A DNA stretch of 64,000 nucleotides from assembly GCA_050287845.1 (NCBI GenBank), contig JBNKCR010000026.1, forward strand, positions 1-64,000, in the 5' to 3' direction. Numbering within the stretch: position 1 is the stretch's first letter; each line of letters opens with the position of its first letter. This DNA comes from Polyangia bacterium. Its GTDB lineage: Bacteria > Myxococcota_A > Polyangia > JAAYKL01. Made by a program: the position numbers and the translations under genes. Positions 9,570-56,342 of this stretch are shown piece by piece. The notes under the pieces are model-generated. The model did no database searches. It was not told the DNA's origin and saw only the letters and a program-made list of their open reading frames with translations.

Positions 9570-12167
9570 TCACCCTTCCCGGTACAGGACAGCGAATTGT
9601 CCACGGGCGTCGGCATACAACTTGAGGCGCTGGCGTTCGTCTGTATCGACTACTTTGATAATATCATTGAAATATGCGTATTCCGGGAGCAATTCCGCCA
9701 GTTTTCCGGAGGTGTCGTTCAGCCACTCTCTGTTCCACACGGTAGTTTCCCTGGCGGGCAACGCTGCCAGATATAGCATATCGGCTTCCACCAGTTCATT
9801 GAAGAAGTGCGTTCCCAGCGACACGTCGGGCACCAGGCTGTCGCTCATGGCCACAATTTCGCAAAGCACTTCGACCGTATTGATTTGGGCGAACGACACC
9901 GGCACCCCCAGCGCCGGCGTGGTGGTACCCCAGCGACCGGGGCCAATGAGTGCCAGGTGATAGTCGGCTGCCTCGGCCCCGGGTAAATGCAGCAACCGTC
10001 CAATGACTTCCGCAACCTGGTAGCGCTGGGCTTCGCTCAACCGACAATACGCTTCCGGCACCACATAAATCACCCGGGCCATATCGATAAAGCGACTCTG
10101 GCCAATCACCGGACCGGCACACTGCAGCACCACCTGATTGGACTGCAACTCAGGTGGATGCCCCACCTCGCTTCCCCGGTGCACCTGCATGGGTCGGCAC
10201 TGCACCACGTTGATGAGGTAATCGTCTTTCGACGTGAAGTTCACCGTGAATTCCACTTCCACCGGATAGGCATAGCTGGCTTCCAGAATGGACAGCATCT
10301 CCCGCATGTCCGCAATGAAATGGGTCTCTTCAAAGATGCGATCGAAGTTAATCACCCACGAAAATATGTCGCTCCGTCCCCGCTGCCGGGCAAACTCCTC
10401 CGCCGCCAGATCCCGCTCGGCAAACCACGACACCCGAAGCCCGGTGGACGCCTTTGCCACCGTGTCAAAATCCAGACTCCCACAATAATCGGACCGCAAA
10501 TCGAGCACATCCACCTTGCGCTGTGAATACTTGCCCGGGTCTCCGGAATCGAGTTCAGCCCGCCGCAGCGGGGCATTGAGCGCCACCAGCCGGGTATAGT
10601 CATCGTCGCGCCGATCCACCGCCCGGGTGCCAAGGCCAAACACCAGGCGCAGCATGCCGCTATCCGGATGGATACTCTCGTGCCAGATATATGGATTGAA
10701 CGACAGGCCCACCCCCGCCAGATGGGGATAAAAATATTGCCCGGAAATGCACCCCGATACCCGCTGGACCAGCAACCCCATTTCTTCGTCCATATCGAGG
10801 ATGCCCCGCTTTTGCCGGTACAGCAGCGCCTCCCGGCTCAGGGTGGAGGCAAAAATTTCCTTCACTGCGGCGATAAATGCATCAAGACGCTGCTCCGGGG
10901 TTCCCTGATTGGGCAAAAACACACTGTCGTACTTGCCGGCAAAGGCATTGCCAAAATTGTCTTCGAGTAAGCTGGACGACCGCACAATAATGGGGGACTG
11001 GCCAAAATACTGCAGCATGTTCCAGAATCGATTCACAATATGCGGCGGAAACGTCCCGGACAATATGCGCTTTCTCGCGTTTGCCGCACCGGCCAGCATG
11101 CCCGTCTCGCTCTGCCGCCTGTGCTGCAGCCACCAGCTGCCATCCGATACCAGGTAGGAGCAGTACAGGTCTGTGCCAATAAAAAACGAATCGTGGGGCT
11201 CAATGGCATTCCGGTATCTGTCGAATCGCTTTCTGAGAATCGCGCGGGCCAGCAGCATCCCCACGGTCTTCCCCCCAAGCCGGCCTGGCGCCAGCATGCG
11301 GCTTCGGATTTCGAGCAGGTCTTCCACGGAAAAATATTGGCGGGCCAGATCGAGAACTCTGGAATTGCTGCTGATCATCATTTTCATCAGCAGCGGCTTG
11401 TAGGACTCCACCATTTCCCGGGGCACCTGTCCTTCCCGATACTCGGCAACCACTTTTTCAACCTTGAGAAACGTTCTCGACCAGAACCCCTGCTGGTAAC
11501 TTGCCGCATCCTGCCACGACCACGATACGGTGCGCATGATTTCGGCCACCGTGGCGCTGTGAGCCACCGGCTCGAATTGGTCTCCCTGTTTTTCGTGGAG
11601 TACATACATTGATGGCGAATGGCGCTCCGCCACCTTTCGGGGCAGCACGAATACCCGCTGATTGCGGTTGAACACGTCAATGAGAATCTGGGTATGGTCG
11701 CTGATGGGATTGGTGGCGTAAAACGAATGCTCTCCCTGCAACAGAGAAAACAGGGCCACAGCCCCTTTTTCGTGGATGTACGGACAGATGAGCGCAAAGA
11801 AATTGCCTACCATTAAATCCGAATACCAGCACGTGGCCAGCGATGACATGCTGTCGAAGAGGTAATATCCCCCTTCGCCCATCTCATCAATCTTTTCGTG
11901 AATCATGAAGGTGAACCGCTCGAATCCCATCTCCGGGGACAGCGGAACCGTCTCCACCCCTGCCATATCGTCAATCAGCTTTTCCTGGCCTTCAAAATGA
12001 AAGTACACCACACGGGCGCCAGCCACCGCCCCGGCACGGACAAACGGTGCGGCAAACAGGCGGTAATCTCCCGGCTTGTCCACGTGAAACACAATGTTGT
12101 CCCCGGGGAGCAATCCGGTCAGCAGCGTGTCCAGCCCCGACAGACCGGTGGTGAACGGCGCCGTCAA
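9570..12167 (-). CDS. PEP-utilising-enzyme N-terminal (PPDK_N, ATP-grasp) domain protein with a degenerate RecA/KaiC-like N-terminus
   Basis: TGLSGLD.LL.GL..GD start; GGK, PIIVRSSSLLED, FAGKY.S, VFGLGTRAV, VEVEF, VQCRP, GPGRWGT. Confidence 0.8.
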   Translation of the reverse strand: MTAPFTTGLSGLDTLLTGLLPGDNIVFHVDKPGDYRLFAAPFVRAGAVAGARVVYFHFEGQEKLIDDMAGVETVPLSPEMGFERFTFMIHEKIDEMGEGGYYLFDSMSSLATCWYSDLMVGNFFALICPYIHEKGAVALFSLLQGEHSFYATNPISDHTQILIDVFNRNQRVFVLPRKVAERHSPSMYVLHEKQGDQFEPVAHSATVAEIMRTVSWSWQDAASYQQGFWSRTFLKVEKVVAEYREGQVPREMVESYKPLLMKMMISSNSRVLDLARQYFSVEDLLEIRSRMLAPGRLGGKTVGMLLARAILRKRFDRYRNAIEPHDSFFIGTDLYCSYLVSDGSWWLQHRRQSETGMLAGAANARKRILSGTFPPHIVNRFWNMLQYFGQSPIIVRSSSLLEDNFGNAFAGKYDSVFLPNQGTPEQRLDAFIAAVKEIFASTLSREALLYRQKRGILDMDEEMGLLVQRVSGCISGQYFYPHLAGVGLSFNPYIWHESIHPDSGMLRLVFGLGTRAVDRRDDDYTRLVALNAPLRRAELDSGDPGKYSQRKVDVLDLRSDYCGSLDFDTVAKASTGLRVSWFAERDLAAEEFARQRGRSDIFSWVINFDRIFEETHFIADMREMLSILEASYAYPVEVEFTVNFTSKDDYLINVVQCRPMQVHRGSEVGHPPELQSNQVVLQCAGPVIGQSRFIDMARVIYVVPEAYCRLSEAQRYQVAEVIGRLLHLPGAEAADYHLALIGPGRWGTTTPALGVPVSFAQINTVEVLCEIVAMSDSLVPDVSLGTHFFNELVEADMLYLAALPARETTVWNREWLNDTSGKLAELLPEYAYFNDIIKVVDTDERQRLKLYADARGQFAVLYREG

Positions 12168-12170
12168 CGG

Positions 12171-13541
<1,371 letters not shown>

Positions 13542-13658: not shown

Positions 13659-15950
13659 ATGATTCCTGAACTGTTGATATTCGTTATTTTCCTGGTATTG
13701 TTCATATGCATTGCCGCCGCTATCCGGATGTGGATAAAAAAAAGCCGGGAAGCCCACAGTCTGACCAGATACAATACGGTCGTTCAGGCCGGTGTTGATA
13801 TTCCCCCCACCCTGCACCCGGTGTTCGACGCCGCCCGGTGCATCGGGTCCGGCGCCTGTACCCATGTGTGTCCCCAGGGCGACGGAGTGGTGGGCCGCAT
13901 TCACAGCAGAGGGGTGCTCATCGATCCGACCAGCTGCATCGGCCACGGTCTCTGTGCCGCTTCGTGCCCCATGGGCGCCATCCGTCTGGTATTCGGCACC
14001 TCTGAACGGGGCGTGGACATTCCCCATCTCTCCAATCAGTTCGAAACCAACGTCCCCGGATTGTATATCACCGGAGAGCTTGGCGGCATGGGACTTATCG
14101 CCAATGCGGTGCGCCAGGCCAGAGAAGGCATGGACAATATTGCGAAGGTGCTGAAGAACACCCCTTCGGCAACCCACTCACCGGACATGGTGGATGTGTT
14201 GATTGTCGGCGCCGGACCGGCGGGACTGGCCAGTGCTCTGGCTGCCCGATTTCACGGTCTCTCCTATCGGCTTTTTGAACAGGAATCCTCGTTCGGCGGC
14301 GCCATTCTGCAGTATCCCCGCAACAAAATCGTAATGACCCAGGCCATCCCGTTTCCGCTGGCGGGAACGGTCCAGCCCACTACCATGAATAAAGCGAAAC
14401 TGGTTTCCATGTTTGAACGCATTGTTGTCGAACACCACATCAAACTGGAAACCGGCATGCGCGTCGAACAGATTTCCCGACAGGACGACGGCAGCTTCAT
14501 TGTGAAATCCGGCAAGACATCGGTGCATGCCCGGAAAGTCATGCTGTCCATCGGACGAAGGGGAACGCCCCGCAAGCTGGGCGTACCGGGGGAGCACCTG
14601 CCCCATGTCCGATATATGATGACGGAACCGGACACATATACCGGCCAGCGGGTGCTGGTGGTGGGCGGCGGCAACTCCGCCGTTGAAACCGCGTGTCTCC
14701 TTGCAGAAACGCCGCAAACCCAGGTGTCCCTCTCCTATCGCAGCGATTCCCCGGACCGGGCGAACGCCGCCAATCGCGAACGATTGGAAGCGCTGGTCAA
14801 CGAAAATAAACTTCAGACCATTGCCAACAGCACGGTCTCTGAAATCACACCGGAGTATGCATTGCTGACCCGGCAGGGGAGCGAAGTGCGCATCCCCACC
14901 GATGCCGTCATTGTTCAGATTGGCGGGGAACTGCCCAGTAATCTCCTGAAGCATTTCGGGGTTTCTCTGGAACGGCATTTCGGCGAAGAAACCGAAGAAA
15001 ATCGCACCATGGCATCGGCGGATGACGTGTTCCACCACATCCGGCGGCAACGACGGGCCGAGGGACTTCAAAACTTTCATGTGGAAAAACCCGGAATTCC
15101 CGGCTGGCTGAAGTGGTTGCTGGGAATACTGAGCATCGCTGTGCTGGGAGTGCTGTTCTACACCGGCCGCGCTTACTATCTCACCCCGGAAATCATTCGA
15201 CGCGACATGGAATCGCTCCATGTGTTCGGGGCGTCCGGCATCTTCGGACACTCCATCGGCATCTGGGCGGCGGTACTGATGGCGTTCAATCTGCTGTATT
15301 TTGCCCGCAAAGAATACCGCGTCTTCAGCAGATTCGGCAACATTCACAGCTGGATGTATTTTCACCAGTTCAGCGGGTTGCTCGCCGCCGTGGTCATCCT
15401 GTTGCACACTGCGCTCATTATGCACAACGCCTTTGCCCTGGCCCTTTACATCAGTCTGGGGCTGCTGTTGCTGACCGGCATTATTGGTCGATATCTGTAT
15501 GTGATGGTCCCCACCGATCCCCGGGGGCGTCCCCTCACCCACGAGGCGCTGGTGGACCTTTCGGACCGTATGAAAGAACAGTACAGCGATCTGTTCGGAC
15601 AGCTGGACGCCACCATCGAAGTGTCCAAAGTGCTGGACCGGGGGTACCAGCCCAATCATTCGTTCGCCATGCTGTTGCTGCGCCTGTTCACCATCTGGCC
15701 ATACCGCCTTTTTCAGCTCTCAGGCATCTTCCGCCGCGCACACAGGCAGCTTGCCGAAAAAGAAGCGTTCGCAGCGTTCAAACATTACGGCACCGAAATG
15801 GCGCGTCTGCATCTGCAGCTGGAAATCGCGTGGCGCATCAAACGCCTGCTCAGTCTGTGGCGGCACGGCCATGCCATTCTGGCGATGCTGACCGTGGCCC
15901 TGGTAACCATTCACGTCATCATTGAAATAGAGGTGGGGTACCTGCCATGA
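13659..15950 (+). CDS. Membrane oxidoreductase: N-terminal TM anchor, 2x[4Fe-4S] ferredoxin, thioredoxin-reductase-like FAD/NAD(P)H domain and C-terminal cytochrome b-like membrane domain
   Basis: CIGSGACTHVCP and CIGHGLCAASCP; IVGAGPAG; GRRGTPRKL.VPGE; VVGGGNSA; TM helices with two H-x13-H pairs. Confidence 0.82.
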   Translation: MIPELLIFVIFLVLFICIAAAIRMWIKKSREAHSLTRYNTVVQAGVDIPPTLHPVFDAARCIGSGACTHVCPQGDGVVGRIHSRGVLIDPTSCIGHGLCAASCPMGAIRLVFGTSERGVDIPHLSNQFETNVPGLYITGELGGMGLIANAVRQAREGMDNIAKVLKNTPSATHSPDMVDVLIVGAGPAGLASALAARFHGLSYRLFEQESSFGGAILQYPRNKIVMTQAIPFPLAGTVQPTTMNKAKLVSMFERIVVEHHIKLETGMRVEQISRQDDGSFIVKSGKTSVHARKVMLSIGRRGTPRKLGVPGEHLPHVRYMMTEPDTYTGQRVLVVGGGNSAVETACLLAETPQTQVSLSYRSDSPDRANAANRERLEALVNENKLQTIANSTVSEITPEYALLTRQGSEVRIPTDAVIVQIGGELPSNLLKHFGVSLERHFGEETEENRTMASADDVFHHIRRQRRAEGLQNFHVEKPGIPGWLKWLLGILSIAVLGVLFYTGRAYYLTPEIIRRDMESLHVFGASGIFGHSIGIWAAVLMAFNLLYFARKEYRVFSRFGNIHSWMYFHQFSGLLAAVVILLHTALIMHNAFALALYISLGLLLLTGIIGRYLYVMVPTDPRGRPLTHEALVDLSDRMKEQYSDLFGQLDATIEVSKVLDRGYQPNHSFAMLLLRLFTIWPYRLFQLSGIFRRAHRQLAEKEAFAAFKHYGTEMARLHLQLEIAWRIKRLLSLWRHGHAILAMLTVALVTIHVIIEIEVGYLP

Positions 15951-18604
15951 CACCAACCATCCATCAACGTCTCTTCGCCGTCTGTCTCCCTGCGCTCGTT
16001 CTCGCCTGTTCGATATTGGCCGGTGTCGCCGCGCACGCCCAGGTATTTTCCCCGGGCAAGCTATCGCGCTTTCATGCAAAATGGGATTCCCTTGGCCATT
16101 GCGACGAGTGCCACACCACAGGCCAGCGGGTGGACAGAAAAAAATGTCTATCGTGTCACGAGCCGGTCGCAGAACGAATCCGGCAGAAAAAAGGCTTTCA
16201 CGGCCAGAAACGGGTTCGCACTCAGTCCTGCGAAAATTGTCATTCGGAGCATCGGGGCGAAACGGCGTCCATCATCAAATGGTCATTTTCAGACCACGGC
16301 GATACCCTGGCCAAACGGGGAGAGGCCGATTTCAACCACGATCAGACCGGCTGGCCCCTGCGGGGGTCCCATGCAAAGGTAAAGTGCAACAACTGTCATC
16401 GAAAGGAACTGATCCGCGATGCCAGAGTGCTCAAGTACCTCCAATCCCATCCCGGCGCCCACACCTTTCAGGGGCTCACCACCCGGTGCGCGGACTGTCA
16501 TTTTGATGAGCATCGCGGCCAACTGACAAGCCGCTGCGAAAAGTGTCACGATGAAACCGAGTTCCGGAAGGCCCCAAAGTTCAAGCACAATGAGCACTGG
16601 AAGCTGAACGGCGCCCACAGAACCGTGGAGTGCAAACTGTGTCACCGGGAGCAGGTGGACGCCAACTACCGGCAAAACGCGTTTCCCAGACCCAGAGCGT
16701 CCACTTATCTGCGGATGACGCCCGTCACCCATGGCAAATGCGTTGACTGCCACAAAGACCCTCACGAAAAGCGTTTCGGAAATGATTGTCTGTCGTGTCA
16801 TACCGAGGACACCTGGATTCTGAACTCGCAACCTCGGGACCTGACGTTCCACGACAGGACCAACTTCCCACTCAAAGGCCGGCATCGTTTTGTTCCCTGT
16901 GAACGATGTCACCCCAGAAATGCCCGGGGCAAAATGAAGCAAAAGCCCATTGCCCACGATCGCTGCAACACGTGTCATCCCAACGCCCATCCGGATTTCG
17001 GCAAGGGCGCCCGACTGTCCACCGGGGACTGTGGGGACTGTCATGACAACAATAGATTCTCGCCTTCCACCTACTCGGTTGAAGTGCATCAGAAATCCAG
17101 GTTTCCCCTGTCAGTGCCCCATCAGGCGGTCCCGTGCACCGATTGTCACCTGAAAAAAATGGGCTCCCCGATTGGCGACAATGCCGCCCACAAGCTCAAT
17201 GGATTTGCCGCCAAACGGGTACACTCTCCCTGGCGAATGACTGCCCGGATATCTCCGGATGACTGCAGTTCCTGTCACGAGTCGCCCCATCGAGATCAGT
17301 TCGGCAAAAAGAAATGCACGGCGTGCCATGTCAAAACCACGTGGAAAATCGACCCGGCCGGCTGGCAGCATTCGAAGCACAGCAAGTACGCGCTGGAAGG
17401 ACGGCACAGGAAGGTGCCCTGCTACCAATGCCACAAAACCGAAACCGATTCGGACGGCCACCAGTTTGTCCGATACCGCCCCATGGCCCATGACGACTGC
17501 ATTGATTGCCACACCGATCAGCACGCCGGTCAGTTCCAGTATCTGTCCCCCCGGAAGAAGTGCCGGGACTGTCATGACGTGAACGGGTTCGCTCCATCCA
17601 GGTTTGATCATAACGATCCGGCATTCAGCTCGTTTCCATTGAAAGGCAAGCATGCATCGGTCAAATGCGCCAGATGTCACCCCCGGGTGAAACTGTCCGA
17701 TGGTTTCTCCACCCTCCGATATCGACCCACGGTCACTGATTGCGATCTGTGTCACGAGGACGAACACAAGGGCGCCTTTAAAGAAGTGGCGGCGATGCAG
17801 CGCAGCTCGGTCACGCCGTTTCACAATACTTCCGACGCCACTGCACAGAAAGATTCATGGCAGATGCCATCGAGCTGGATTCCAGAGGAGAGCAGCCGGA
17901 CCGATTGTGCCGCCTGCCACGAGGAATCGGGCTTCGCCAACGTGCACTTCAACCACGACAACACGAGATTTCCCCTGAAAGGCAGGCACCGGCAGGTCCC
18001 GTGCGCCAGTTGTCACAAAACCAGCATCAATGATCCCCTGCCCCTCACCTGCGAGGGATGCCATACCGACGTACACAAGGGCAGTCTGGGCCGCAACTGC
18101 CAGGAATGTCACGATGAAAGTGGTTTTCAGAATACGCTTCCCGCGGTACTGGCTCGACACAACCGAAGTCGATTTCCGTTGATTGGTCGACACGCCGCCG
18201 TTCCGTGCACTGAATGTCACCGGGATGGGAACAGCCGAGAATTTAAAAAGACGCCCACCGATTGCCGGGCGTGCCATGCCAAAGATATTCCCGGTCCGGG
18301 AGAAGCCGCGATTGACCACGACCAGCTGGATATGGCCTGCGATCGATGTCATACCCCGGTAGGATGGCACACTGCCGCCTTTGAGGGACACGATCGCTGC
18401 TTCCCCATTGGCACGGTCTCCAAACACGGTTCGGTCGCGTGCAGCAAATGCCACCTGGGAAATCCCCCTCGCCGACTGGCCAACTGCGACACCGGCACAT
18501 TTTCGTGCATTCAATGTCATGGATGTCAGACCTCCCGTCACCGGGACGTCGTTGGATATTCATGTGAGGACAGGAGGTGCTACGAATGCCATCGCACACC
18601 ATGA
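15947..18604 (+). CDS. Secreted multiheme cytochrome c with 30 CxxCH motifs
   Basis: Signal peptide ending AHA-Q; 30 CxxCH counted by hand; repeating FPLxGxHxxVxCxxCH units; ATGA overlap. Confidence 0.95.
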   Translation: MTPTIHQRLFAVCLPALVLACSILAGVAAHAQVFSPGKLSRFHAKWDSLGHCDECHTTGQRVDRKKCLSCHEPVAERIRQKKGFHGQKRVRTQSCENCHSEHRGETASIIKWSFSDHGDTLAKRGEADFNHDQTGWPLRGSHAKVKCNNCHRKELIRDARVLKYLQSHPGAHTFQGLTTRCADCHFDEHRGQLTSRCEKCHDETEFRKAPKFKHNEHWKLNGAHRTVECKLCHREQVDANYRQNAFPRPRASTYLRMTPVTHGKCVDCHKDPHEKRFGNDCLSCHTEDTWILNSQPRDLTFHDRTNFPLKGRHRFVPCERCHPRNARGKMKQKPIAHDRCNTCHPNAHPDFGKGARLSTGDCGDCHDNNRFSPSTYSVEVHQKSRFPLSVPHQAVPCTDCHLKKMGSPIGDNAAHKLNGFAAKRVHSPWRMTARISPDDCSSCHESPHRDQFGKKKCTACHVKTTWKIDPAGWQHSKHSKYALEGRHRKVPCYQCHKTETDSDGHQFVRYRPMAHDDCIDCHTDQHAGQFQYLSPRKKCRDCHDVNGFAPSRFDHNDPAFSSFPLKGKHASVKCARCHPRVKLSDGFSTLRYRPTVTDCDLCHEDEHKGAFKEVAAMQRSSVTPFHNTSDATAQKDSWQMPSSWIPEESSRTDCAACHEESGFANVHFNHDNTRFPLKGRHRQVPCASCHKTSINDPLPLTCEGCHTDVHKGSLGRNCQECHDESGFQNTLPAVLARHNRSRFPLIGRHAAVPCTECHRDGNSREFKKTPTDCRACHAKDIPGPGEAAIDHDQLDMACDRCHTPVGWHTAAFEGHDRCFPIGTVSKHGSVACSKCHLGNPPRRLANCDTGTFSCIQCHGCQTSRHRDVVGYSCEDRRCYECHRTP

Positions 18605-20331
18605 TTCGACAACGGTTCGCATTCATCGTGATGATCATTTTCAGTCTGGCTGGCATCGGCGTCCACGCAGCCAGGTTGGACGCGCGAATCACCTACGTGG
18701 CCCTGGACAGTGTCTATCTGTCGTGCGGTCGTGAATGCGGCGTGGCGGTCGGCGACTCGTTCAGGCTGATGCGCCATGGCAAAATGGTCGCCCGAATCCG
18801 CATCATCCAGGTCAACGATACTTCGGCGTCCGCCACGGTGACCGTGAAGAAAGGCCGCATCCAGGCGGGAGACCGGGTCATCCCTGAGAAAACGAAGACA
18901 ACGAAGACGAAAAATGCCCGCGCCACCTCGCCAATCGGTGGTGTGGTGGTACCTCCGGCCACGTCCCATCAGAATCCACAATGGGACGAAGACGGCCTGC
19001 AGGACGTCTGGACCCGGGCCCTTATCGAATCCCCGCCGGTTCGGGTCGCGCACCGGAACACCGGCGCCGACCCGGATCGACTTACCACACTGGCGGCAGG
19101 CGCCGGAACCGCCCTGCACCAGTATGCCTACATTCAGAGCCGGAACTATCTGCGCACCGAGCAGACCCTCTGGTTTTTTGCCCGCGGAGGCCAGGCATCG
19201 GAACCGGGAATGAGCTGGGCCGTGGACGGCACGCTCAAAGGCCGATACGACGACGGAAATGATCGGTATCTCGAAGATCAGCGGTTCATTCCCCTGATTC
19301 GCCGTCTCTCGGTTTCATATCGTTTCCGACAGCATCCCATCACCCTGACCCTGGGCCGCTTTTCACCGGATGCGCCTATAGTGCATACCATTGATGGGCT
19401 GGAAACCGAACTGGAAGCCCGCCGCTTCTCCCTGTCCCTGTTCGGGGGAATTCTGCCCGACGAACAGGATATGGCGCCCACGGTGACCCGCCAGGCCGTT
19501 GGCATTGCCACAAGAATCACGCCGCTGGCTGCGGGGAATTACACTGCCGAAGCGGTGGTCCTGGCCAAACTGCACAAAGGCGCACTCTATCGCGCCGCAT
19601 TGGGAATCAACAACTGGTTCTACACTGAATCGGGGGCTCATTTCTCCCAGACAGCCGTTGTTGATTTTCTCTCTGCATCGAAAGATGCCAAGTCCCGGGG
19701 AGACGTCACCCTAAGCCGCGCCACCGTTGACGCCGCATGGCCCCTGACCGGACGCATGCAGATGGATGTGCGCGGACGCTACGACAAATCGGTTCTGTTT
19801 TCCCGGGATTACAGCGACCTGCCCCCGGAATGGCTTTCATATGTCGATTGCACCGGACAGGCGCGGCTGGAAACGGGCCTGCCCATGCGTACCCGCAGGT
19901 ATCGCGAAGTTCGTCCATTTGTATTCGGCCGGGCCGATCTGGTTTCCTGCGGGGTGGATGGCGGCAGAGGCGGAGCGGGCGTCAGCATTCGCGATGACTC
20001 CGTATTTTCTTCGCAAACCGGCCTGACCACGGTTGTCGACTACAGCGGGGGCACCGGTCAGACGCTGAATATTGACCTCACTACCAATACGCCTTTTAAA
20101 AGCGGTGCGCTGCAGCTGCTCGGCGGGCTATATACCACATGGAACTGGGTATCTCAGTCCGAAGTGCACACCCTGCGCAATCTCGCTTTTGTAATGCTGC
20201 AGGGACAACTGCGGCCCAACATTGATTTGTTCGCCAATTTGCAGGCCGGTTATGACCACGCGCTGGTACGCCTGACATATCCGTTCGGGGTGTGGATGCA
20301 GGTTCACATGGGAATTACCGCACGCTACTGA
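18601..20331 (+). CDS. Putative outer-membrane beta-barrel with a small N-terminal beta domain
   Basis: Signal peptide; alternating amphipathic strands; ends MQVHMGITARY with a terminal aromatic; ATGA overlap with the cytochrome stop. Confidence 0.65.
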   Translation: MIRQRFAFIVMIIFSLAGIGVHAARLDARITYVALDSVYLSCGRECGVAVGDSFRLMRHGKMVARIRIIQVNDTSASATVTVKKGRIQAGDRVIPEKTKTTKTKNARATSPIGGVVVPPATSHQNPQWDEDGLQDVWTRALIESPPVRVAHRNTGADPDRLTTLAAGAGTALHQYAYIQSRNYLRTEQTLWFFARGGQASEPGMSWAVDGTLKGRYDDGNDRYLEDQRFIPLIRRLSVSYRFRQHPITLTLGRFSPDAPIVHTIDGLETELEARRFSLSLFGGILPDEQDMAPTVTRQAVGIATRITPLAAGNYTAEAVVLAKLHKGALYRAALGINNWFYTESGAHFSQTAVVDFLSASKDAKSRGDVTLSRATVDAAWPLTGRMQMDVRGRYDKSVLFSRDYSDLPPEWLSYVDCTGQARLETGLPMRTRRYREVRPFVFGRADLVSCGVDGGRGGAGVSIRDDSVFSSQTGLTTVVDYSGGTGQTLNIDLTTNTPFKSGALQLLGGLYTTWNWVSQSEVHTLRNLAFVMLQGQLRPNIDLFANLQAGYDHALVRLTYPFGVWMQVHMGITARY

Positions 20332-20354: not shown

Positions 20355-22613
20355 TTACATCTTCGGAGGAGGCATTTTAGTCAGCGGCCCGCCTTCGTAT
20401 CTGACTTCGGGAATCGGTTTGAGCTCCGTGGCCACGAAAAGATCGTAGGCATCCTTTACGCGGGCAAACGCTTCAGGCTCCGTCTTTTCCAGAGATTCCC
20501 CCTGTTCTCCCTTTTTTAGATTGTAAAACCGGAGAGCACCGGTCTGATCGAGCACATGCAATTTCCATCCATCGTATATAAACACACGCCGGGCATCGTA
20601 CATATCGTTCTGGCGAAGATCGGCAAAGACATATGGAATTTCGAGTTGCTGTCCCGGTACCCAATCCGGCAACAGGCTGATACTGTGTGACCCTGCAGGC
20701 ACCGGTTGGCCAAATAAATCCAGCAGCGTCGCAAACAGGTGAATGGCGCTGGTGGGGCGCTGAATATGTTTGGGCACAATACCCGGGCCGGCGATTGCCA
20801 GGGGAATCCGAATGTTTTCCTCGTACAGCTCATAGCCATGAAGCCACCGACCGTGTTCATGAAACGACTCCCCATGATCCGCGGAAAGAATGACCAGCGT
20901 GCGTTTATCCAGACCCAGCTCCCGGAACTTATCGAGCACCTTTCCCACATAAAAGTCAGTGTACAGCACTTCATGGTCGTAGCGATCCCGCCGGGATGTC
21001 CCGAACTGCCTGAAACCCTCATGGGTCAGATAATCGCCATGGGGATCCATGAAATGCACCCACATGAAAAAGCGGCCGGACGTATTTTCGGGATTCTTCA
21101 TCCACTTGATGGCAATTCGAGCCACGTCCGGCGAAGTGAATTGTCTGGCGGAATTGACGGTATCGGTGGGTTGACCGGTGACAAACTCCCAATGGGTAAA
21201 TCCCTGATGCCACCCATAGAACGGTCTGAACAGAAAATGGCTCATCAATCCGCCACACATCACTTCTTTGCCGCATATCAGCTCCGCCGCAAAGGTTTCA
21301 TCGAGGCCCACCCGCATCTTCTGCAGACTGCTGCGGTGCAGTTCGCTGGGATACTTTCCGGTCATCATGGCGGGAATGGACTGTGACGTATATGAGCTGA
21401 TGGAATAGGCATTCTCATATATCGCGCCATCCCTGAACACGGCATCGAGATTGGGCGTCAGGGGCCTCGGCTGTCCCATGAATCCCACCTCATCACTGCG
21501 CAGGGCATCCACGGTAATTAAAAGCACTGACAAATCCGCCGGCAAATCCGGTTGCTTCAGTGCCTGATTCACGGCGGTTTTCCTTACCACCCGACTGGCC
21601 AGCTGTTTCAGATTCAAATCCCCGCCGGAACAGTCCTCATCCACCCCATTGTCCGGAATTTCCGTTGCCCCGGGGTATATATGCGGATTGCCATCGTCGC
21701 AGTCGCGGCCCCCCAGCCAATGGGAATGCCCATCGCCATCCCGGTCGCCAAACCGACGCGCGATTTTGCCGGTCATCATGGCAAGTCCTCCGGCGCCATT
21801 GACATTCTCCACCATCCCGGGGTCAACAGCAGATACCCTGAATGCCAGATAAGGCTGTACCAACAGAGAAAGCGCCACCACTCCCGCAGACACCCAGACC
21901 TGCCGACGCAGCCGACCCATGAATTGGCTGGCCAATATGTACAGAGGCAGAATTCCCGCCAGTATCGCCAGTGCGCCTGTCACCGGTCCCAGACCCAACC
22001 CGTCCAGCCGCAAAAGGCTCATGAATGCAAATGGATTTCCATTTCCCCCTTCTCCGCCAATGTACCCATAGGACAACGAAACCACCGACACCAGCATCAC
22101 CACGCCCAGCGCAACCGCCGGTGTTATCCAGCGTGAATCTGCCCATTTGCGCCGGGAAAGCTCGAGGCTGAGCCAATATCGGATTCGCAGGATGACCACA
22201 ACCAATATCAGCGAAACCAGCAGCAGGGTACAGAGCAATGCAAGGGCCGCCAGACCCATATGGTGGAAGTGAATCATGAAGAACACGATGACCTGATAAA
22301 ACAGCGCCGCTGTCCCGGGACCAAACAGCCCCCACACCAGAATACTGACGAACGTTTCTGCGTTGGATGAAAACAGAAATTCTTTTTGCAACATCTGGCG
22401 AAAATGCGGGGGCAGAATCCAGAACGCCATGGTCACCAGTCCTGCCAGGGCAATCCCGACCGGTGCCAGTAAACCGGCCGAAAAAAGTATCGCAAATCCC
22501 ACTGAATCTCCGCCCGCCATACACCCTTCCACGACCCCAACAATGCTGCCGGAGACCGCACCACACAGAAGCGCCCGCACCAGGGCGCGTAAAAATACGT
22601 GCATAAACGTCAA
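20355..22613 (-). CDS. Membrane-anchored sulfatase/alkaline-phosphatase-fold transferase with a Cys/Asp putative metal-binding motif
   Basis: Multi-TM N-terminus; DRDGDG…DCDD…IYPGATEIPDNGVDEDC; LITVDALRSD; YTSQSIPAMMTG; HFMDPH; SADHGE. Confidence 0.8.
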   Translation of the reverse strand: MTFMHVFLRALVRALLCGAVSGSIVGVVEGCMAGGDSVGFAILFSAGLLAPVGIALAGLVTMAFWILPPHFRQMLQKEFLFSSNAETFVSILVWGLFGPGTAALFYQVIVFFMIHFHHMGLAALALLCTLLLVSLILVVVILRIRYWLSLELSRRKWADSRWITPAVALGVVMLVSVVSLSYGYIGGEGGNGNPFAFMSLLRLDGLGLGPVTGALAILAGILPLYILASQFMGRLRRQVWVSAGVVALSLLVQPYLAFRVSAVDPGMVENVNGAGGLAMMTGKIARRFGDRDGDGHSHWLGGRDCDDGNPHIYPGATEIPDNGVDEDCSGGDLNLKQLASRVVRKTAVNQALKQPDLPADLSVLLITVDALRSDEVGFMGQPRPLTPNLDAVFRDGAIYENAYSISSYTSQSIPAMMTGKYPSELHRSSLQKMRVGLDETFAAELICGKEVMCGGLMSHFLFRPFYGWHQGFTHWEFVTGQPTDTVNSARQFTSPDVARIAIKWMKNPENTSGRFFMWVHFMDPHGDYLTHEGFRQFGTSRRDRYDHEVLYTDFYVGKVLDKFRELGLDKRTLVILSADHGESFHEHGRWLHGYELYEENIRIPLAIAGPGIVPKHIQRPTSAIHLFATLLDLFGQPVPAGSHSISLLPDWVPGQQLEIPYVFADLRQNDMYDARRVFIYDGWKLHVLDQTGALRFYNLKKGEQGESLEKTEPEAFARVKDAYDLFVATELKPIPEVRYEGGPLTKMPPPKM

Positions 22614-22774
22614 CCTATGTAAAAAAAATCGAACTCTTCATGAATATGTTATTTAAAGGTCTTTTGCCGGTGTATCATATCTTCACTATTTTCCTCCCAT
22701 AGAAATGTGAAAAATCTCCATACAGCCCCCAAACGCCTTCACAAACGCCAAAGATGTTGAGACAGTCCCGACGA

Positions 22775-24979
22775 TCAGAATCCGACACTCTCCCGTGGAT
22801 TGGACGGGATTTCGGTCATGCCCCGCTCCCTCATCACCAGGTGAAGTTCGTGGGTCAGAATCGGCGCCCGCTCGGCAATGCGACGCAAATCCGAGCCCGC
22901 AATACAGAAGGCTTTCAACCCGGTCCGGGCAACGACGGTGGCGTTTCGGCGGCTACTGTATCCCATCGCCACATTTTCGCCGAAGAAATCGCCGGGACCG
23001 AGCGCCTCTTTCAATGATTCAACATTTCGGGAGCGCTTCAGAACGTCGGCTTCCCCGGATATGATAACGTAAAAATCATCGGACTTCCCCCCCTGGCGGA
23101 CAACCACTTCGCCGCGCTCAAATTCCCGCGCTTCGGCGAGCAGTGAGATTTCGTGCTTCGCATGGGGATGCAGATTTCGAAACAGCTTCAACTGTGAAAT
23201 GAACTCCCGGGACACCCAGAGACGTTCAAACCGCTTTTTCAGATGGTTCGCATCCACAAATTCGAGGAATATATCGCCGGGCAAGCGGAACAGCACGCAC
23301 GCAGAAAGCGTTCGAAACGCAGCATTGCGCTTCACATTGCGAATAATCGACATTTCTCCAAAAAAATCGCCGCTCTCCAGCAACGCTATCTGCTTTGATT
23401 TTCCACCGCTCTGAATCAGAATCTCCCCACTGCCGGACAATATAAAATAAAAACCATCGCTGTTGGCCCCCTGGGCAACCACTTCCACGCCGGGCTTCAC
23501 TTCCAGTACTTTCCCCTGAGAAAACACTACATTAATCCAGAACAGGTCTGTTACTTCCAGGAGATTCATTGTTTTCAGCAGCTTCAACACCAGGGACTGC
23601 GACAGGGAATTGCTTTCCAGGTAGGTGCGCCCCCACCCCGGCGTCGCCACAGAGAAGCGATTTGTGTCCACCCTGGCCGGGTTCACGTGGTAAAACAGAA
23701 AATCGGTTTGCGGATTCTGCACCACATCCGCTTCAAAGTCGGAAGGGTCTCCATGAATCGGGGCGCCCCCCCCATCTATCATGACCAGACTCTCGCCCCC
23801 TCGCACCAATCCTTTCATGCGCTGCGCCTTCCCTTCGGTAATGGCGCCGGCCTGCACCATTTCGTCCAGCTTGCTGAACCCGGCGGTATCACTGCTGTGC
23901 ACCACCGTGTACAGCTTGCCGTCTCTCCCGCGCACAGATACCCGGAATCCAATGGTCGGAATCGAATGCACCGTATAAAAGAACTCCCATCTGGCCCCAT
24001 ATAAATTAAACGGCTTTCCGGGCACTACCTCTGTGAAAGTCAGATAGTTTCGAATCTCGTCAATCGATTCTCCGAGCACATTGCTGGTTTTGATAAGCAT
24101 CGATTCATAAATTTCGCGCGTCGTAATGATATTGGCTGTCTGTTCGGATAAAATCATATCCATCAGGGTGCAATGGTCGTCGTGAACATGAGACAGAATA
24201 ACTCCTGCAAGGTCCGACTTCGGAATCCCCAGTTGACGGAGGTACTCTGATGTCCCCACCGGGCCATCCACCAGAAATCCATTGCAGTTGACCCACATCA
24301 CCATTCCCGTAGTCGGCCCCTCAGTATCGAAACCCGAATAGGTTCCCAGCAGCTTCACGCGCAACACCTGCGGTATTTCCGGATGAATCTGCGGTTCCGT
24401 CATCACCGGCAATTGTTCCCCCGCAAATGTCAAGTCCACTTTCTGCGCATGAGCGCCATCTCGAATTTCGAATTGATTTTCCCCCGTGTGTACCACTTCC
24501 GGACCCGATTCCCACAGCGGAACCCCCGCGTTGTCCGCGGGGAACAGGGCAAAATCGAGAATATCGGCCAGTTTCAGAGCGTGGCCACCCCGTTTGATTG
24601 CCATGTAATTCATCATTTTTGTCAAATACTGAGTCCGGCTTTTTGAAATTCGCCAGTTTTTCATCTGCTCGCGAGAGGGACCATACAGTGTCACCATCAT
24701 GGTCTCCTGAACCCGTCGACACATTTCCCCGGTGCCGATAACACGAAAGCGGCAATCCTGCTGTCCGCTATCGAAGAACAGATGCCAATATGCCAGAAAC
24801 TCCAACGCAATCTGAGACACGCCATTCACATATGCAATATCGGGAAGCACAACAACCCGGGGCATCTTCCGGTTTCCCCGGAGCACAAATTTCAATATTT
24901 CAGGAGGGGAGCCAAACAGTGCCGCATTTTCGTTCTGCTGCAGATGAAAGCAACCGGGAAGAATCTGTTGAATATCCAT
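22775..24979 (-). CDS. Metallo-beta-lactamase-fold hydrolase with two cNMP-binding domains (putative cyclic nucleotide phosphodiesterase)
   Basis: SHVHDDH, HSIPT, HSSDT; two GDFFGE…RNA cNMP motifs. Confidence 0.8.
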   Translation of the reverse strand: MDIQQILPGCFHLQQNENAALFGSPPEILKFVLRGNRKMPRVVVLPDIAYVNGVSQIALEFLAYWHLFFDSGQQDCRFRVIGTGEMCRRVQETMMVTLYGPSREQMKNWRISKSRTQYLTKMMNYMAIKRGGHALKLADILDFALFPADNAGVPLWESGPEVVHTGENQFEIRDGAHAQKVDLTFAGEQLPVMTEPQIHPEIPQVLRVKLLGTYSGFDTEGPTTGMVMWVNCNGFLVDGPVGTSEYLRQLGIPKSDLAGVILSHVHDDHCTLMDMILSEQTANIITTREIYESMLIKTSNVLGESIDEIRNYLTFTEVVPGKPFNLYGARWEFFYTVHSIPTIGFRVSVRGRDGKLYTVVHSSDTAGFSKLDEMVQAGAITEGKAQRMKGLVRGGESLVMIDGGGAPIHGDPSDFEADVVQNPQTDFLFYHVNPARVDTNRFSVATPGWGRTYLESNSLSQSLVLKLLKTMNLLEVTDLFWINVVFSQGKVLEVKPGVEVVAQGANSDGFYFILSGSGEILIQSGGKSKQIALLESGDFFGEMSIIRNVKRNAAFRTLSACVLFRLPGDIFLEFVDANHLKKRFERLWVSREFISQLKLFRNLHPHAKHEISLLAEAREFERGEVVVRQGGKSDDFYVIISGEADVLKRSRNVESLKEALGPGDFFGENVAMGYSSRRNATVVARTGLKAFCIAGSDLRRIAERAPILTHELHLVMRERGMTEIPSNPRESVGF

Positions 24980-52835: not shown

Positions 52836-54392
52836 ATGAAACCTAAAAAACTATTCATTCATATAGGAATGCCCAAAACGGGTAGCAGTGCCATTCAAGC
52901 CTTGCTTGCTTTAAATCCTGACTATTTACGACAACAACATTTTGAATTTCCATGGCCTCCGAAGTTTGGTCAGGCATATCAGACCAGTGCCGGGAATGCA
53001 GCCCATTTGCATGAATGGATTGTGCAATCAGGAGCCGAACGGTTCAACAAAGCGATTAGTAATCTGGATTCATCAAAAGTTGTGTTATCATCGGAGATAC
53101 TCTTTCACACCGTCCGTTTGCATCCTGAAAAATTTTCGACTTTTTTCAGCTCCTATGATGTTAAAGTCATCTGCTATATAAGAAAAATGGACGATTTTCT
53201 TGAAAGCTGTGTCAATCAGCTTGTGAAGAACCACGGGTTAATCGACTATTCCAATTTAAGTCCAATTATCAAGGAACATGATTACGCTACAACGCTCTTG
53301 AATCTGGTCCAGCACATGGCCCCTGAAAGAATAGAGATACGCAAGTATGATAGAGATACTTTTGTTGGCGGGAATATCTATTCTGATTTTGCTGCCAGCA
53401 TAGGCCTGGACCTCAATTCCAATAATAAGGAAATAAATTGGCCAGGAAAAGTGATTAACCCATCCTTCGATTTTAATACCTTCCAATTCCGACGCCTATT
53501 GAATGACGCGCAATTCGATATCAACGACAACGAATTGCGTTACCAAACCAATGGAATTTTAGCAGAGTTCAGCGTTCAAGCAGATGAATTGAAAGTACCA
53601 TTCATAGAGTACAGCGAAAAAGAAAACATTTTGAAGGAATTTTCAAAAAAGGAAATAGAACTCAGCAAGATGTTCCGAGGAGTGAGCGAAACGTACTTTT
53701 CAACCAAGCCTACTTCTGCGGGATCACCTCCGAAAGAATACTCACCGGAAAGCATTGGAGAAATACTGCGCTTTGTGTATCGAAGGAACCCAGATACTTT
53801 TTTCAAAATTCTAGATGGCACAATCGCGTCATTCAACAATAATCGGGCGAATCAACTCATGGTTGCTATCCGAACGAAATTCTTGCCCACTTTTTTCTCG
53901 GAGGATCACTCTAAGGAGGAACAAGCGAGGGTCCTTGCCTACATAACAAGTATACTTCCGCCAGTGCTTCTCATAACCGGAGACAATTTCCACCGTCTTA
54001 TTCACCGGAAGAGCAAAGATATTGCTGGCATATCTCGAACTTTTTCTTCCGGATTCATTGTGGAAGCAAATGCTGAAGATCCGTACTTTTCCATTGCGCC
54101 AGTCCGACCCTCAGAAACAGATTTCTATGTTGTCAAGATATGTGTGTCCGTTACTCACGACACCACGTTGCAGCTGTTTTATCAAACTCACGAGCAACGC
54201 ACATTCACCAGATTTTGCTCAGAGCTGCGAAAGATTCAAATTGGATATAATGAGGTCAGTGTTGTGATATCCAATAAGCAGTTCAATGGTAACATCAGAA
54301 TTGACCCCGGTATGCATCAAGGGGAATACATTTTTCATAGTATTGCTGTGTTCGCAGAAACCGACACCTCATCGCGCATAGAGGAAATCTAA
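52836..54392 (+). CDS. Sulfotransferase-like P-loop protein with a C-terminal beta-sandwich-like domain
   Basis: IHIGMPKTGSSAIQ, LSSE, YIR…ES..NQ.VK; C-terminal QLFY…IRIDP. Confidence 0.6.
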   Translation: MKPKKLFIHIGMPKTGSSAIQALLALNPDYLRQQHFEFPWPPKFGQAYQTSAGNAAHLHEWIVQSGAERFNKAISNLDSSKVVLSSEILFHTVRLHPEKFSTFFSSYDVKVICYIRKMDDFLESCVNQLVKNHGLIDYSNLSPIIKEHDYATTLLNLVQHMAPERIEIRKYDRDTFVGGNIYSDFAASIGLDLNSNNKEINWPGKVINPSFDFNTFQFRRLLNDAQFDINDNELRYQTNGILAEFSVQADELKVPFIEYSEKENILKEFSKKEIELSKMFRGVSETYFSTKPTSAGSPPKEYSPESIGEILRFVYRRNPDTFFKILDGTIASFNNNRANQLMVAIRTKFLPTFFSEDHSKEEQARVLAYITSILPPVLLITGDNFHRLIHRKSKDIAGISRTFSSGFIVEANAEDPYFSIAPVRPSETDFYVVKICVSVTHDTTLQLFYQTHEQRTFTRFCSELRKIQIGYNEVSVVISNKQFNGNIRIDPGMHQGEYIFHSIAVFAETDTSSRIEEI

Positions 54393-54548
54393 CCTATTTA
54401 CGAATAAAGATCGCTTTCATCAGTGGTGTGAAAGAATCTGTTGTGCGCCAGTTGCTTTTCACTTTCTTGTATACAAAGATCAAGCGCTGAACAGATGCAC
54501 ACAAAATGCCGAGGGATACTGCTGACTTGTAGTGACCAAAAATTTATT

Positions 54549-55499
54549 TCAAAAAAAAAGAAGCTTCTTTCCAAACAATCGAAATTTGCGGATCAATTCA
54601 TTTTGACTTTCCTTTTTAACAATCTGCCTACGTTCCTTGCTGTACTGCTCACATTTTTTACCCACAAAAACTCGGCCAGCGTCAAGTTTCCTCGCCTCAT
54701 CCATAATAATTTTCGCAGTATGCAGATCACCTTTTTTTTCGAAACATAATGCTGTTCTGCACATGATATCAACTGGCTCGTCTCCTGAAAAGGCCCTGAG
54801 ATAAAAGAATGGCGATACTTTCATATATTTTCCCAATATCTCGAACCATCGATCTTTATCCCCCGCATCAACTGCTTTTTCATAAGAGTTAAAAAAACTT
54901 ACATCTTCAACGAATAGTCTCGAGTGTCTGTATTCCAGCTTCTGGTCTGGTGTTTTAACAAGAAGAAAACTGAAATCCAAGCCTGGATATTTTTGTTCAA
55001 CAACATGAATAAATCGCTCGATTGGCTCAAAATCTCCCCTATTCGATTTGTACACAAAAAGGACCTTCTGGTTGCCAGTCAACTGCTTCTTAAATCTTTC
55101 GACAAGATAAGAAATCTTTGAATACTCTTTCTGATAATCTTCTGAGTAGTTTTCCGAATCGACTTCAAAACCATTTTCCGTTTGGCGAATAGCAAACTTC
55201 ACATGAAAGCCAATTGAATACCTGCGGCAGGTCACGCCACGAATAGACGTCGGAAAGACATCTTTAAAAAAACCCTCAAAGTCATTTTCGATTAGAGAAA
55301 CAACGTTCGACAATCTGCTGGCTGCATATCGGAAAAGCGATCCTTTTACAAAACCAGCCCTTGTTAGTTGTGCTCCCAACTCGCAGTTGTCGCCAACAGG
55401 AATAATGATTTCGTGTGTACCGGTATTTGATAGTATATTCTGTATAATTAATTTTCTTGGATAACTATAGCACATTGATTTCACCCATGTATTTGGCAT
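54549..55499 (-). CDS. DUF1796-like (putative papain-like) protein; start uncertain
   Basis: IPVGDNCE…L, SLF, F.GF, YL.ERF…LFV pattern. Confidence 0.5.
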   Translation of the reverse strand: MPNTWVKSMCYSYPRKLIIQNILSNTGTHEIIIPVGDNCELGAQLTRAGFVKGSLFRYAASRLSNVVSLIENDFEGFFKDVFPTSIRGVTCRRYSIGFHVKFAIRQTENGFEVDSENYSEDYQKEYSKISYLVERFKKQLTGNQKVLFVYKSNRGDFEPIERFIHVVEQKYPGLDFSFLLVKTPDQKLEYRHSRLFVEDVSFFNSYEKAVDAGDKDRWFEILGKYMKVSPFFYLRAFSGDEPVDIMCRTALCFEKKGDLHTAKIIMDEARKLDAGRVFVGKKCEQYSKERRQIVKKESQNELIRKFRLFGKKLLFF

Positions 55500-56342
55500 T
55501 TGCGAAAAGAATTAACAGGATTCCACATCAGTGCCAACATCCAAAAAAGTAACCGCCAAAAATTTTAACATCCTGCTTCTCGGGGGGCTAATGCCTGAGT
55601 CGGCACTTTCGCACAACCGAATTTCTTTACATGTTTTCCTGTGGCTTCATCATATAGCCAGTACAAATGCTCAACCGAATCCAGACTCTGCATTGGATTT
55701 TCGATGTGAAATCCGTGGTGTCGTTTATCGATATTATATGTCTTCAGGTCTTTCCAATGTGAATAACACATAACATCAATGGGGGGAACTCTCATATTTA
55801 CAAATGTCTGCACACCAAAGTCGAACATAAGCCAGGCAACTTTTCCGGCAGGGACACATTGGTCATGTAGCTTTCCGTGAGCAACCAGTTACACATATTT
55901 CTCAATAACTCCGTGTCTGTTTCATATCTGCACTCACACGAATGATTACACACCGCCGCAGGTCTCCATCGTCATCCGGACTTGCCTTTCCATATCGACC
56001 TTCTTTTCAAATCCTCGACAATTCCAGCATCATCCAGCGTCTCTCCATATTCCATTTCACCTCTCAATCAGTGTTGGCCACGAAAGCCCGCACTTGCCGT
56101 CCCGCATCACTTTCCCATTTCTTCTTTCCTGTCACTTTGATACATGACGTTTTCACTGGATCTATGGACTCAAGAAGAGTATAAAATTCTACTTTAATAA
56201 CGAGTTAGATCGAAGCAATCGCACATTCGGATGACATATAGAATTTATCCGTTTCAAATGGAGAAAATTGAAATCCCCCTTGGGGCACATTCGATACTCA
56301 AAGAAGTTCCTCACCCCATAAAATAGATACAGGAGATATTTG

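Follow-up and report, generated by a model that had tools for sequence, protein, structure and literature searches.

The 64,000-nucleotide (nt) stretch of Polyangia bacterium DNA analyzed here, called the window below, carries on its forward strand a cluster of three genes (positions 13659-20331) that we are somewhat inclined to read as one self-contained electron path, running from cytoplasmic NAD(P)H to the outside of the cell by way of a predicted outer-membrane barrel. Gene 1 joins a ferredoxin and a flavin domain to a membrane domain, gene 2 encodes a cytochrome c with 30 heme motifs, and gene 3 encodes the barrel. A sequence-only reading had proposed such a wire without recognizing its architecture as a characterized system. 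The membrane domain, the cytochrome, and the barrel can now be matched to PCC3, a predicted porin-cytochrome cluster described from iron oxidizers, in which the membrane protein was modeled as quinone-linked (He et al. 2017, PMC5566968); the link to the flavoprotein is new. Of the wire itself, the gene structure, the barrel model, and the cytoplasmic prediction for the flavin domain now stand behind the proposal, and we continue to infer heme b binding, quinone-free transfer, direction, and surface exposure.

In the proposed mechanism, NAD(P)H would reduce the FAD of the cytoplasmic flavoprotein domain, and two atypical iron-sulfur (Fe-S) clusters would relay single electrons from the FAD to a pair of b hemes, passing from the cytoplasmic-side heme (H569/H738) to the periplasmic-side heme (H583/H752). 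The 20-heme module of gene 2 would carry the electrons across the periplasm, and its 10-heme C-terminal module would meet the barrel and reach the outside through it. Flow would be outward, either as a redox valve or to reduce external acceptors such as Fe(III), humics, or partner cells. We hold the outward direction with moderate confidence, and the lack of an obligatory quinone step and the threading of the barrel by the cytochrome each with moderate to weak confidence.

This path is supported by the fusion of its first parts into one chain with a confident whole-chain AlphaFold2 model (pLDDT 88.0, pTM 0.83), together with a genetic linkage that is found from both search directions. It is also supported by the host genome (96% complete), which shows one NapC/CymA-type gene, located beside a 5-heme cytochrome on another contig, and cytochrome bd, and in which no heme-copper oxidase was found. 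Cytochrome c assembly genes are present, and the host resembles an anaerobe that lacks a heme-copper oxidase. A tested analogue of the proposed input is MsrQ, to which a cytosolic NADH oxidoreductase delivers electrons (PMC12525009).

To our knowledge, it is the quinone pool that feeds the porin-cytochrome conduits characterized in Gram-negative bacteria. Direct supply from NAD(P)H would wire metabolism to minerals, electrodes, or partner cells in a different way, one open to fermenters and to organisms without CymA-type proteins. More tentatively, and leaning somewhat against the idea ourselves, we raise the possibility that PCC3-type clusters across many phyla are NOX-like lines that export electrons from cytoplasmic NAD(P)H without a quinone step, with the ferredoxin-flavoprotein as an overlooked fifth component, and are not quinone-linked iron oxidases. 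The operon described here would in that case represent the system at its smallest, each compartment being served by a single polypeptide, and would be the easiest version to transfer for testing. An NAD(P)H-fed conduit would also change the reading of PCC3, which the available text of two sources names among the candidate iron oxidases of Gallionellaceae, with a putative function (PMC10734462; CL21 preprint). Its expression in Sideroxydans ES-1 did not track Fe(II), according to the available text of that study (PMC8788666). The fused form makes the role of PCC3 directly testable, since it offers one membrane protein and three genes that can be moved as a unit.

Linkage of the flavoprotein and the membrane protein

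The link between the flavoprotein and the membrane protein is general, being seen from both search directions and in two fusion orders. When the ferredoxin and flavin patterns alone were used for searching, at least 550 relatives were confirmed, and the best 80 loci were kept. These best 80 include the membrane protein in 68 cases, a cytochrome with at least 10 hemes in 67, a barrel of the gene 3 family in 42, and all four parts in 37; among the 34 of them that span at least 21 kb, the membrane protein is present in 31 and at least one part in every case. Most of the 80 are from Proteobacteria and carry the flavoprotein as a separate, often divergent gene. Fusion in the order seen here occurs in six, all of them Myxococcota by title.

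The reverse survey began with the membrane domain. Its 105 matches are spread over 91 of 301 genomes in the phylum, and the loci ranked 6-37 were fetched. Nearby these 32 membrane domains, the flavoprotein was found in 28 cases, a large cytochrome in 30, and a barrel in 29. The four loci lacking the flavoprotein comprise one 4-kb contig, one intact cluster, and two single-His-motif proteins that have no cytochrome either. One locus (L078/L150) occurs in both surveys, and related loci are not independent.

Nine of the 32 loci (L143, L144, L146-L148, L151, L157, L160, and L169) are fused with the membrane domain first, and their neighboring cytochromes have up to 36 hemes. These fusions retain the anchor helix of the flavoprotein, and a group of Arg/Lys residues separates their last His helix from the ferredoxin; they therefore have the same predicted sidedness. 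To give both domain orders, fusion must have happened at least twice. In a quick tree of 69 of the 117 flavoprotein relatives taken from the fetched loci, the forms fused in the order seen here make up one group, with a support of only 59.

The surveys also reach clusters already described. Gene 1 motifs retrieved an Amphritea locus (L045) with 63 and 21 hemes, the numbers stated for the PCC3 of Amphritea atlantica (PMC5566968). In Sideroxydans ES-1, the gene Slit_0866, which adjoins PCC3 copy 1, is given in the accessible part of one study as a 430-residue FAD pyridine nucleotide-disulfide oxidoreductase (PMC12016527); its detected peptides match motifs of the gene 1 flavoprotein family. A literature search, with most subscription journals outside its reach, found no text linking a ferredoxin-flavoprotein to PCC3. 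The words 'ferredoxin' and 'thioredoxin reductase' are absent from the main text of He et al. (PMC5566968), the figures of which may draw such genes. The portions available of PMC13490349 and PMC11492766 contain nothing on this cluster, and that of PMC13013709 describes a porin cluster with 61- and 20-heme cytochromes in Lentimicrobium without synteny to known modules.

Several related arrangements were encountered in passing. Three of 10 further regions, all weaker matches, hold sets with cNMP-binding domains that resemble PCC4 of He et al. (PMC5566968). At L175 (8457-10709), L177 (8816-11047), and L176, a 4-heme cytochrome is fused to the ferredoxin-flavoprotein, beside a cNMP-binding, ferredoxin, and His-motif membrane protein and 5-heme cytochromes, a set that resembles PCC4. 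Two ferredoxin-flavoprotein copies lie among five multiheme cytochromes at L165 (10735-15378). Proteins of ~680 residues with a single W-x3-H-x13-H motif match the membrane domain at L163 (9634-11670) and L164 (8639-10678), with no cytochrome or flavoprotein of the family within the 20 kb fetched.

Predicted components and their genomic setting

Table 1. Coordinates of the three genes and their predicted features in the window
Feature	Position	Strand	Basis or remark
Gene 1 (763 aa): anchor, two-cluster ferredoxin, thioredoxin-reductase-type FAD/NAD(P)H domain, and five-helix PCC3-type membrane domain in one polypeptide	13659..15950	+	
Membrane helix at the N-terminus, residues 4-22; a stretch rich in K/R comes next, on the side predicted to be cytoplasmic	13668..13724	+	hydropathy 3.1
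Ferredoxin domain, C61-x2-S64-x2-C67-x3-C71 and C93-x2-H96-x2-C99-x3-C103	13815..13988	+	Pfam Fer4 families, matches at 53-110
Segment 116-167, located before the Rossmann fold and similar to the FAD-binding stretch at the C-terminus of thioredoxin reductases	14004..14159	+	
FAD/NAD(P)H domain, YpdA / TrxR-type ferredoxin-NADP+ reductase fold, no CxxC	14184..14981	+	
Five-helix membrane domain of PCC3/PCC4 inner-membrane-protein type, predicted to hold two b hemes	15102..15929	+	helices from model; motifs as in PMC5566968
First motif W565-x3-H569-x13-H583, membrane helix 3	15351..15407	+	
Second motif W734-x3-H738-x13-H752, membrane helix 5	15858..15914	+	
Gene 2 (885 aa): secreted cytochrome c, 30 CxxCH, 29.5 residues per heme	15947..18604	+	
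Gene 3 (576 aa): signal peptide, small beta domain 28-95 (FlgT-C/TsaP-like), flexible linker, predicted 22-strand barrel 163-575, C-terminal Tyr	18601..20331	+	

The earlier account of the locus holds up well at the level of gene structure. The re-derived frames confirm three coupled genes, with ATGA overlaps at 15947 and 18601, and gene 1 has the layout claimed for it (ferredoxin, FAD/NAD(P)H domain, and membrane domain), as judged by matches to the Fer4 families and to Pyr_redox_3 (residues 181-439, E 4.5e-40, Pfam) and by five further hydrophobic helices. A TTG start for gene 1 upstream at 13590 was discarded because homologues align from the ATG at 13659. A promoter scan returned six promoter-like sites vs 3.3 expected, none clearly positioned ahead of gene 1, and a terminator scan listed no terminator-like site 3' of gene 3.

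When gene 1 was aligned with 119 of 120 listed homologues (one partial sequence was left out), the six Cys of the Fe-S motifs, H96, W565, H569, H583, W734, H738, and H752 proved invariant in all 120 sequences, as did G134, G139-E140-L141, and G143-L146. The nearest solved sequences and folds for residues 175-441 are YpdA and the TrxR-type ferredoxin-NADP+ reductases. The structural match to YpdA (Z 20.9, rmsd 3.7, 263 aligned) covers these model residues and residues 1-273 of 326 in YpdA. A conserved stretch before the Rossmann fold resembles the tail missing from this match, which suggests that the flavin domain is circularly permuted; presumably, segment 116-167 corresponds to the FAD-binding tail of thioredoxin reductases. 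Identity with YpdA/Bdr was dropped (TIGR04018, 145.8 bits vs a cut-off of 339.9), and so was identity with thioredoxin reductase (TrxB), since the redox-active CxxC is missing from gene 1, where Cys occurs only at 17, 61, 67, 71, 93, 99, 103, and 346, and from all 117 relatives. The second nucleotide motif, GGG[DN]SA, is found in 98 of the 117, and 97 of the 99 sequences matching the pattern continue with [YH]R; we take this combination to be an NADPH-type site, and we prefer NADPH over NADH as donor with moderate confidence. Elsewhere in the host genome, contig C151 (~21279-23708, reverse strand) encodes a paralogue whose FAD domain is apparently permuted in the same way. It is joined to another kind of multi-helix membrane domain, one with CxxxC motifs, and ends in a two-cluster ferredoxin, its membrane and ferredoxin part being presumably NapH/NosR-like. 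This contig holds no multiheme cytochrome.

Both Fe-S motifs of gene 1 are non-canonical (CxxSxxC and CxxHxxC). The variable position of the first is Ser in 72 of the 117 relatives, Cys in 38, and another residue in 7, and that of the second is His in 116. Single-cluster ferredoxins of both kinds have been purified in the [3Fe-4S] form, those with CxxHxxC having a raised potential (-31 mV in one case) and those with CxxSxxC a low one, as given in the available part of that source (PMC6237146). Extrapolated to this two-cluster domain, the raised potential of a CxxHxxC cluster would suit downhill flow from NAD(P)H.

Beyond its two W-x3-H-x13-H motifs, the membrane domain carries T606-G607-x2-G610 on helix 4, an instance of [ST]GxxG. 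This element is present in all 101 relatives chosen for having both His motifs, a selection that fixes the W and H counts among them, and Thr replaces Ser in 43. Three more H-x13-H spacings in gene 1 (82, 460, and 695) all fall outside membrane helices. Among 40 members of the membrane family, weak Pfam matches (E up to 1) to DUF4405 (23), Ferric_reduct (10), and Ni_hydr_CYTB (7) point to di-heme b or related families. Gene 1 itself has no match to Ferric_reduct (PF01794), for which the best E among the 40 relatives is 0.0065. A fold search with the whole gene 1 model returned flavin-domain matches only, and the ESM Atlas offered only unnamed clusters for the membrane domain. We predict with strong confidence that the domain binds two b hemes.

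The same strong confidence applies to the predicted cytoplasmic location of the ferredoxin and flavin domains, for which three lines of evidence are available. First, the stretch after the anchor helix contains five K+R vs one D+E (mean 6.1 vs 2.6 in 120 homologues). The Lys/Arg bias is likewise high ahead of helix 1, in the loop joining helices 2 and 3, and ahead of helix 5, whereas it all but vanishes in the loop from helix 3 to helix 4 and at the C-terminus; the loop from helix 1 to helix 2, with three K+R and three D+E, is harder to assign. Second, no Tat motif occurs in any of 120 gene 1 homologue N-termini. Third, the reverse-order fusions keep the same sidedness. A periplasmic flavin domain, which the sequence-only reading had named as fatal to its proposal, is thus not what the predicted topology indicates.

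Gene 2 contains exactly 30 CxxCH motifs, and a hydrophobic leader is followed by the mature start Q-[VIT]-F-[SA]-P-G in all seven orthologues shown, in agreement with the secreted 30-heme cytochrome originally described. A lipoprotein reading was dropped because the leader Cys is not conserved in orthologues. The mature chain has 75 His, 30 of which lie in CxxCH; the other 45 would suffice for bis-His ligation. The first 20 hemes form one module, which extends to about residue 612, and the last 10 form another (649-885). In a split cluster (L015), the 20-heme gene aligns at 39% with residues 33-612 and the separate 10-heme gene at 40% with residues 649-883, and the longest inter-heme gap lies between hemes 20 and 21 in gene 2 and in six of the seven orthologues. 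BLAST matches reach E 1e-67 for a 24-heme and 3e-52 for a 21-heme proteobacterial protein, scores that heme repeats inflate, and no solved relative was found at E 0.001. Scaled from the 100 Å of decaheme MtrA (PMC5566968), 30 hemes could span up to ~30 nm if arranged linearly.

The beta-barrel character attributed to gene 3 is borne out by structure prediction. Its AlphaFold2 model (147 sequences, pLDDT 86.8) has 22 strands of alternating hydrophobicity at 163-575 and no plug domain, and the listed fold matches are all beta-barrel membrane proteins, none of them close (best Z 17.7, rmsd 5.3, 370 aligned). An Mtr barrel ranks ninth among these barrels (Z 15.6, rmsd 7.3). The single sequence matches no NCBIfam family and no barrel family, and gives one weak Pfam match (FlgT_C, E 0.006). 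The family profile matches TsaP over the small N-terminal domain and the Mtr barrel chain 6r2q_B at E 6e-7 with a bias of 13.5. Only one homologue was found by word-indexed search, compared with 187 at E 0.001 by exhaustive search, and the ESM Atlas lists generic barrel families. Proteobacterial PCC3 porins were reached from gene 3 by iterated profile only, with none in the first round; the direct profile-profile comparison gives a probability of 55% and E 1e-4 over 168 columns.

The host genome has a single copy of each of the three genes and 11 frames with at least three CxxCH. Close homologues are labelled Myxococcales or Deltaproteobacteria, and the cluster is patchy: of 20 further genomes in the family, two gave a full-length match and one a fragment at the end of a contig. 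On host contig C62 (4968-7543), a 13-heme cytochrome frame directly follows a frame that weakly matches the gene 3 profile (E 2e-4), possibly a second porin-cytochrome pair. Within the window, a glutamate dehydrogenase followed by a PEP/pyruvate-binding-domain protein (9570-13532, reverse strand) is divergent from gene 1. Converging on gene 3 across a gap of 23 bases is a membrane-anchored sulfatase-family protein with a MopE-type metal-binding motif (20355-22613, reverse strand), and beyond it lies a metallo-beta-lactamase-fold protein fused to two cNMP-binding domains (22775-24979, reverse strand; its Apyc1 match is weak and below the cut-off). The G+C content of 36-43% over 54001-64000 vs 52-60% over 1-24000 suggests foreign DNA at the end of the window.

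Quinones, the outer membrane, and the direction of flow

A number of observations weigh against a quinone-free outward path. No experiment was found on any member of the family. The membrane domain falls under the Pfam cut-off of every heme b family, and its family profile finds nothing below E 0.15 among solved structures, and thus no solved relative by sequence. The first Fe-S motif is canonical in 38 of the 117 relatives, and the ferredoxin potentials cited above come from single-cluster proteins. For the predicted 22-strand barrel, plugged transporters are no worse a structural match than the Mtr barrel (Z 17.7 vs 15.6), and the profile match to 6r2q_B is compositionally biased. No separate extracellular cytochrome is encoded in the cluster, whereas four orthologous clusters have an additional cytochrome whose Cys leader is lipoprotein-like. 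Four of the 10 further regions hold the flavoprotein without such a membrane protein or cytochrome nearby. Also, in the accessible data (PMC12016527), the neighbors of the other ES-1 PCC3 cluster (Slit_1446-1449) are an HD protein and an aldolase instead of the flavoprotein. The same source reports that late in growth Slit_0866 was higher on magnetite than on Fe-citrate (log2 +2.35, q 0.018, and +2.55, q 0.0027), as measured from few peptides, and the available part of the CL21 preprint that the PCC3 membrane gene was up when strain CL21 gained iron-oxidizing ability. Finally, He et al. modeled the same membrane protein as quinone-active (PMC5566968), and a quinone site is possible.

That model is the starting point for the explanation that the membrane domain is a quinone-reactive cytochrome b. 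The flavoprotein would then either pass electrons from NAD(P)H to quinone or form a side branch, and the gene 2 cytochrome would trade electrons with the quinone pool via the same b hemes, so that the system would be a three-way junction instead of a quinone-free wire. The weak Ni_hydr_CYTB matches in 7 of 40 family members and the ES-1 cluster without an adjacent flavoprotein fit such a junction, as does MsrQ, which, according to the accessible text, binds ubiquinone as its likely acceptor (PMC12525009). Nonetheless, we judge it unlikely. The presence of the flavoprotein in 28 of the 32 membrane-domain loci, and its fusion in two orders, suggest that it is the main partner of the membrane domain. 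Furthermore, no acidic residue is conserved among positions at or above 70% in the 101 membrane domains, although a quinone site need not have one.

Another possibility is that electrons leave the cytoplasm but stop in the periplasm, where the 30-heme protein would act as a reservoir or feed periplasmic acceptors in oxidant removal or repair, and where the barrel would anchor the cytochrome or pass a solute, with no heme exposed. The MsrPQ analogue ends in the periplasm, as far as the available part of its description goes (PMC12525009). An extracellular cytochrome gene is missing here, the best host-genome matches to the extra cytochromes of related clusters being gene 2 itself, and it is equally missing from the two closest orthologous clusters (L131 and L132). 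The barrel is narrower than that of MtrB, which has 26 strands, and nearest in fold to TonB-dependent transporters. We nevertheless consider a periplasmic end point quite unlikely, given that the barrel gene travels with the cluster (in 29 of 32 and in 8 of 8 loci), that the barrel model has no plug domain, that the barrel gene directly follows the 10-heme module in split clusters, and that the four orthologous clusters with an additional cytochrome (L133-L136) encode proteins of 9 to 42 hemes with a lipoprotein-type leader.

The direction of flow can be approached through energetics. Outward electron transfer from the cytoplasm spends membrane potential and leaves protons inside, as is known for NOX-type enzymes; such flow is favored by the redox gap and the membrane potential and costs proton-motive force. 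Because export carries this cost, a valve or a reductive role is more plausible for the proposed outward path than an energy-conserving respiratory step. The opposite arrangement, in which Fe(II) minerals, metal, or partner cells would supply electrons that reduce cytoplasmic NAD(P)+ by way of the heme chain, gains from the ability of TrxR-type ferredoxin-NADP+ reductases to run toward NADPH. Yet inward transfer to NAD(P)+ opposes both the redox gap and the membrane potential, and the host looks like an anaerobe. The His-type cluster, which from partly available data is expected at raised potential (PMC6237146), also argues against it, as do the accessible expression results for ES-1, where the genes of both PCC3 clusters were lower on Fe(II) than on thiosulfate (PMC8788666). 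In its favor, PCC3 was described from iron oxidizers (PMC5566968). The magnetite and CL21 expression data are compatible with inward flow equally well. Overall, we regard an inward path as very unlikely and favor outward flow.

Comparison with known systems

The flavin domain of gene 1 shares with YpdA and the TrxR-type ferredoxin-NADP+ reductases the fold of residues 175-441 and the lack of CxxC. It differs from YpdA in scoring below the family cut-off, in being apparently circularly permuted, and in its fusion to ferredoxin and membrane domains.

The predicted logic of gene 1 resembles that of NOX enzymes, ferric reductases, and MsrQ, with cytoplasmic NAD(P)H and flavin, His-ligated b heme in the membrane, and an acceptor on the far side. 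Two H-x13-H pairs on helices 3 and 5 (a criterion from PMC5566968) are a further likeness to NOX and the ferric reductases, and the reverse-order fusions, with six predicted helices followed by the flavin domain, recall NOX. In contrast, the flavin domain here has a thioredoxin-reductase fold (Pyr_redox_3) with an inserted Fe-S relay in place of the dehydrogenase fold of NOX, the membrane domain does not reach the Ferric_reduct cut-off, and the acceptor is apparently a multiheme cytochrome c instead of O2, an Fe(III) chelate, or MsrP. Taken as a whole, the cluster would act as an electron exporter of the NOX or MsrQ type coupled to a porin-cytochrome module.

As in MtrAB and PioAB (Shewanella, Rhodopseudomonas), a periplasmic multiheme cytochrome is encoded beside a large barrel. 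The gene 3 profile matches 6r2q_B, with compositional bias. However, gene 2 scores far under the DmsE/MtrA (TIGR03508) cut-off (44.1 vs 192.2 bits), has three times the hemes, and is accompanied by a barrel with 22 predicted strands and by its own inner-membrane input in the same operon. PCC4 shares the membrane-protein motifs, a barrel, the lack of an extracellular cytochrome, and the presence of 'other redox-active proteins' (PMC5566968), but it has three cytochromes with 4, 5, and 10 hemes, whereas the present cluster has one with 30 and no cNMP-binding domain.

The closest comparison is with PCC3. Its inner-membrane protein is defined by five helices, SGxxG on helix 4, and W-x3-H-x13-H on helices 3 and 5 (PMC5566968), and the five-helix membrane protein of the present cluster has both His motifs and [ST]GxxG. 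The two systems also share a periplasmic cytochrome of ~20 hemes (here the N-terminal module of gene 2), which has few residues per heme and is similar to 21- and 24-heme proteins, and an outer-membrane barrel, here a 22-strand model. Four PCC3 genes are listed in the available parts of PMC10734462 and the CL21 preprint, as opposed to three genes here and no separate extracellular cytochrome. The membrane protein is fused to a ferredoxin-flavoprotein that is not listed as a part of PCC3 in the texts found, the cytochrome is a fusion of 20- and 10-heme modules, the barrel is shorter and has an N-terminal FlgT-C-like domain, and the host lies outside the Proteobacteria. Because the cluster shares three of the four parts and lacks the separate extracellular cytochrome, it is a variant of PCC3 and not a canonical member.

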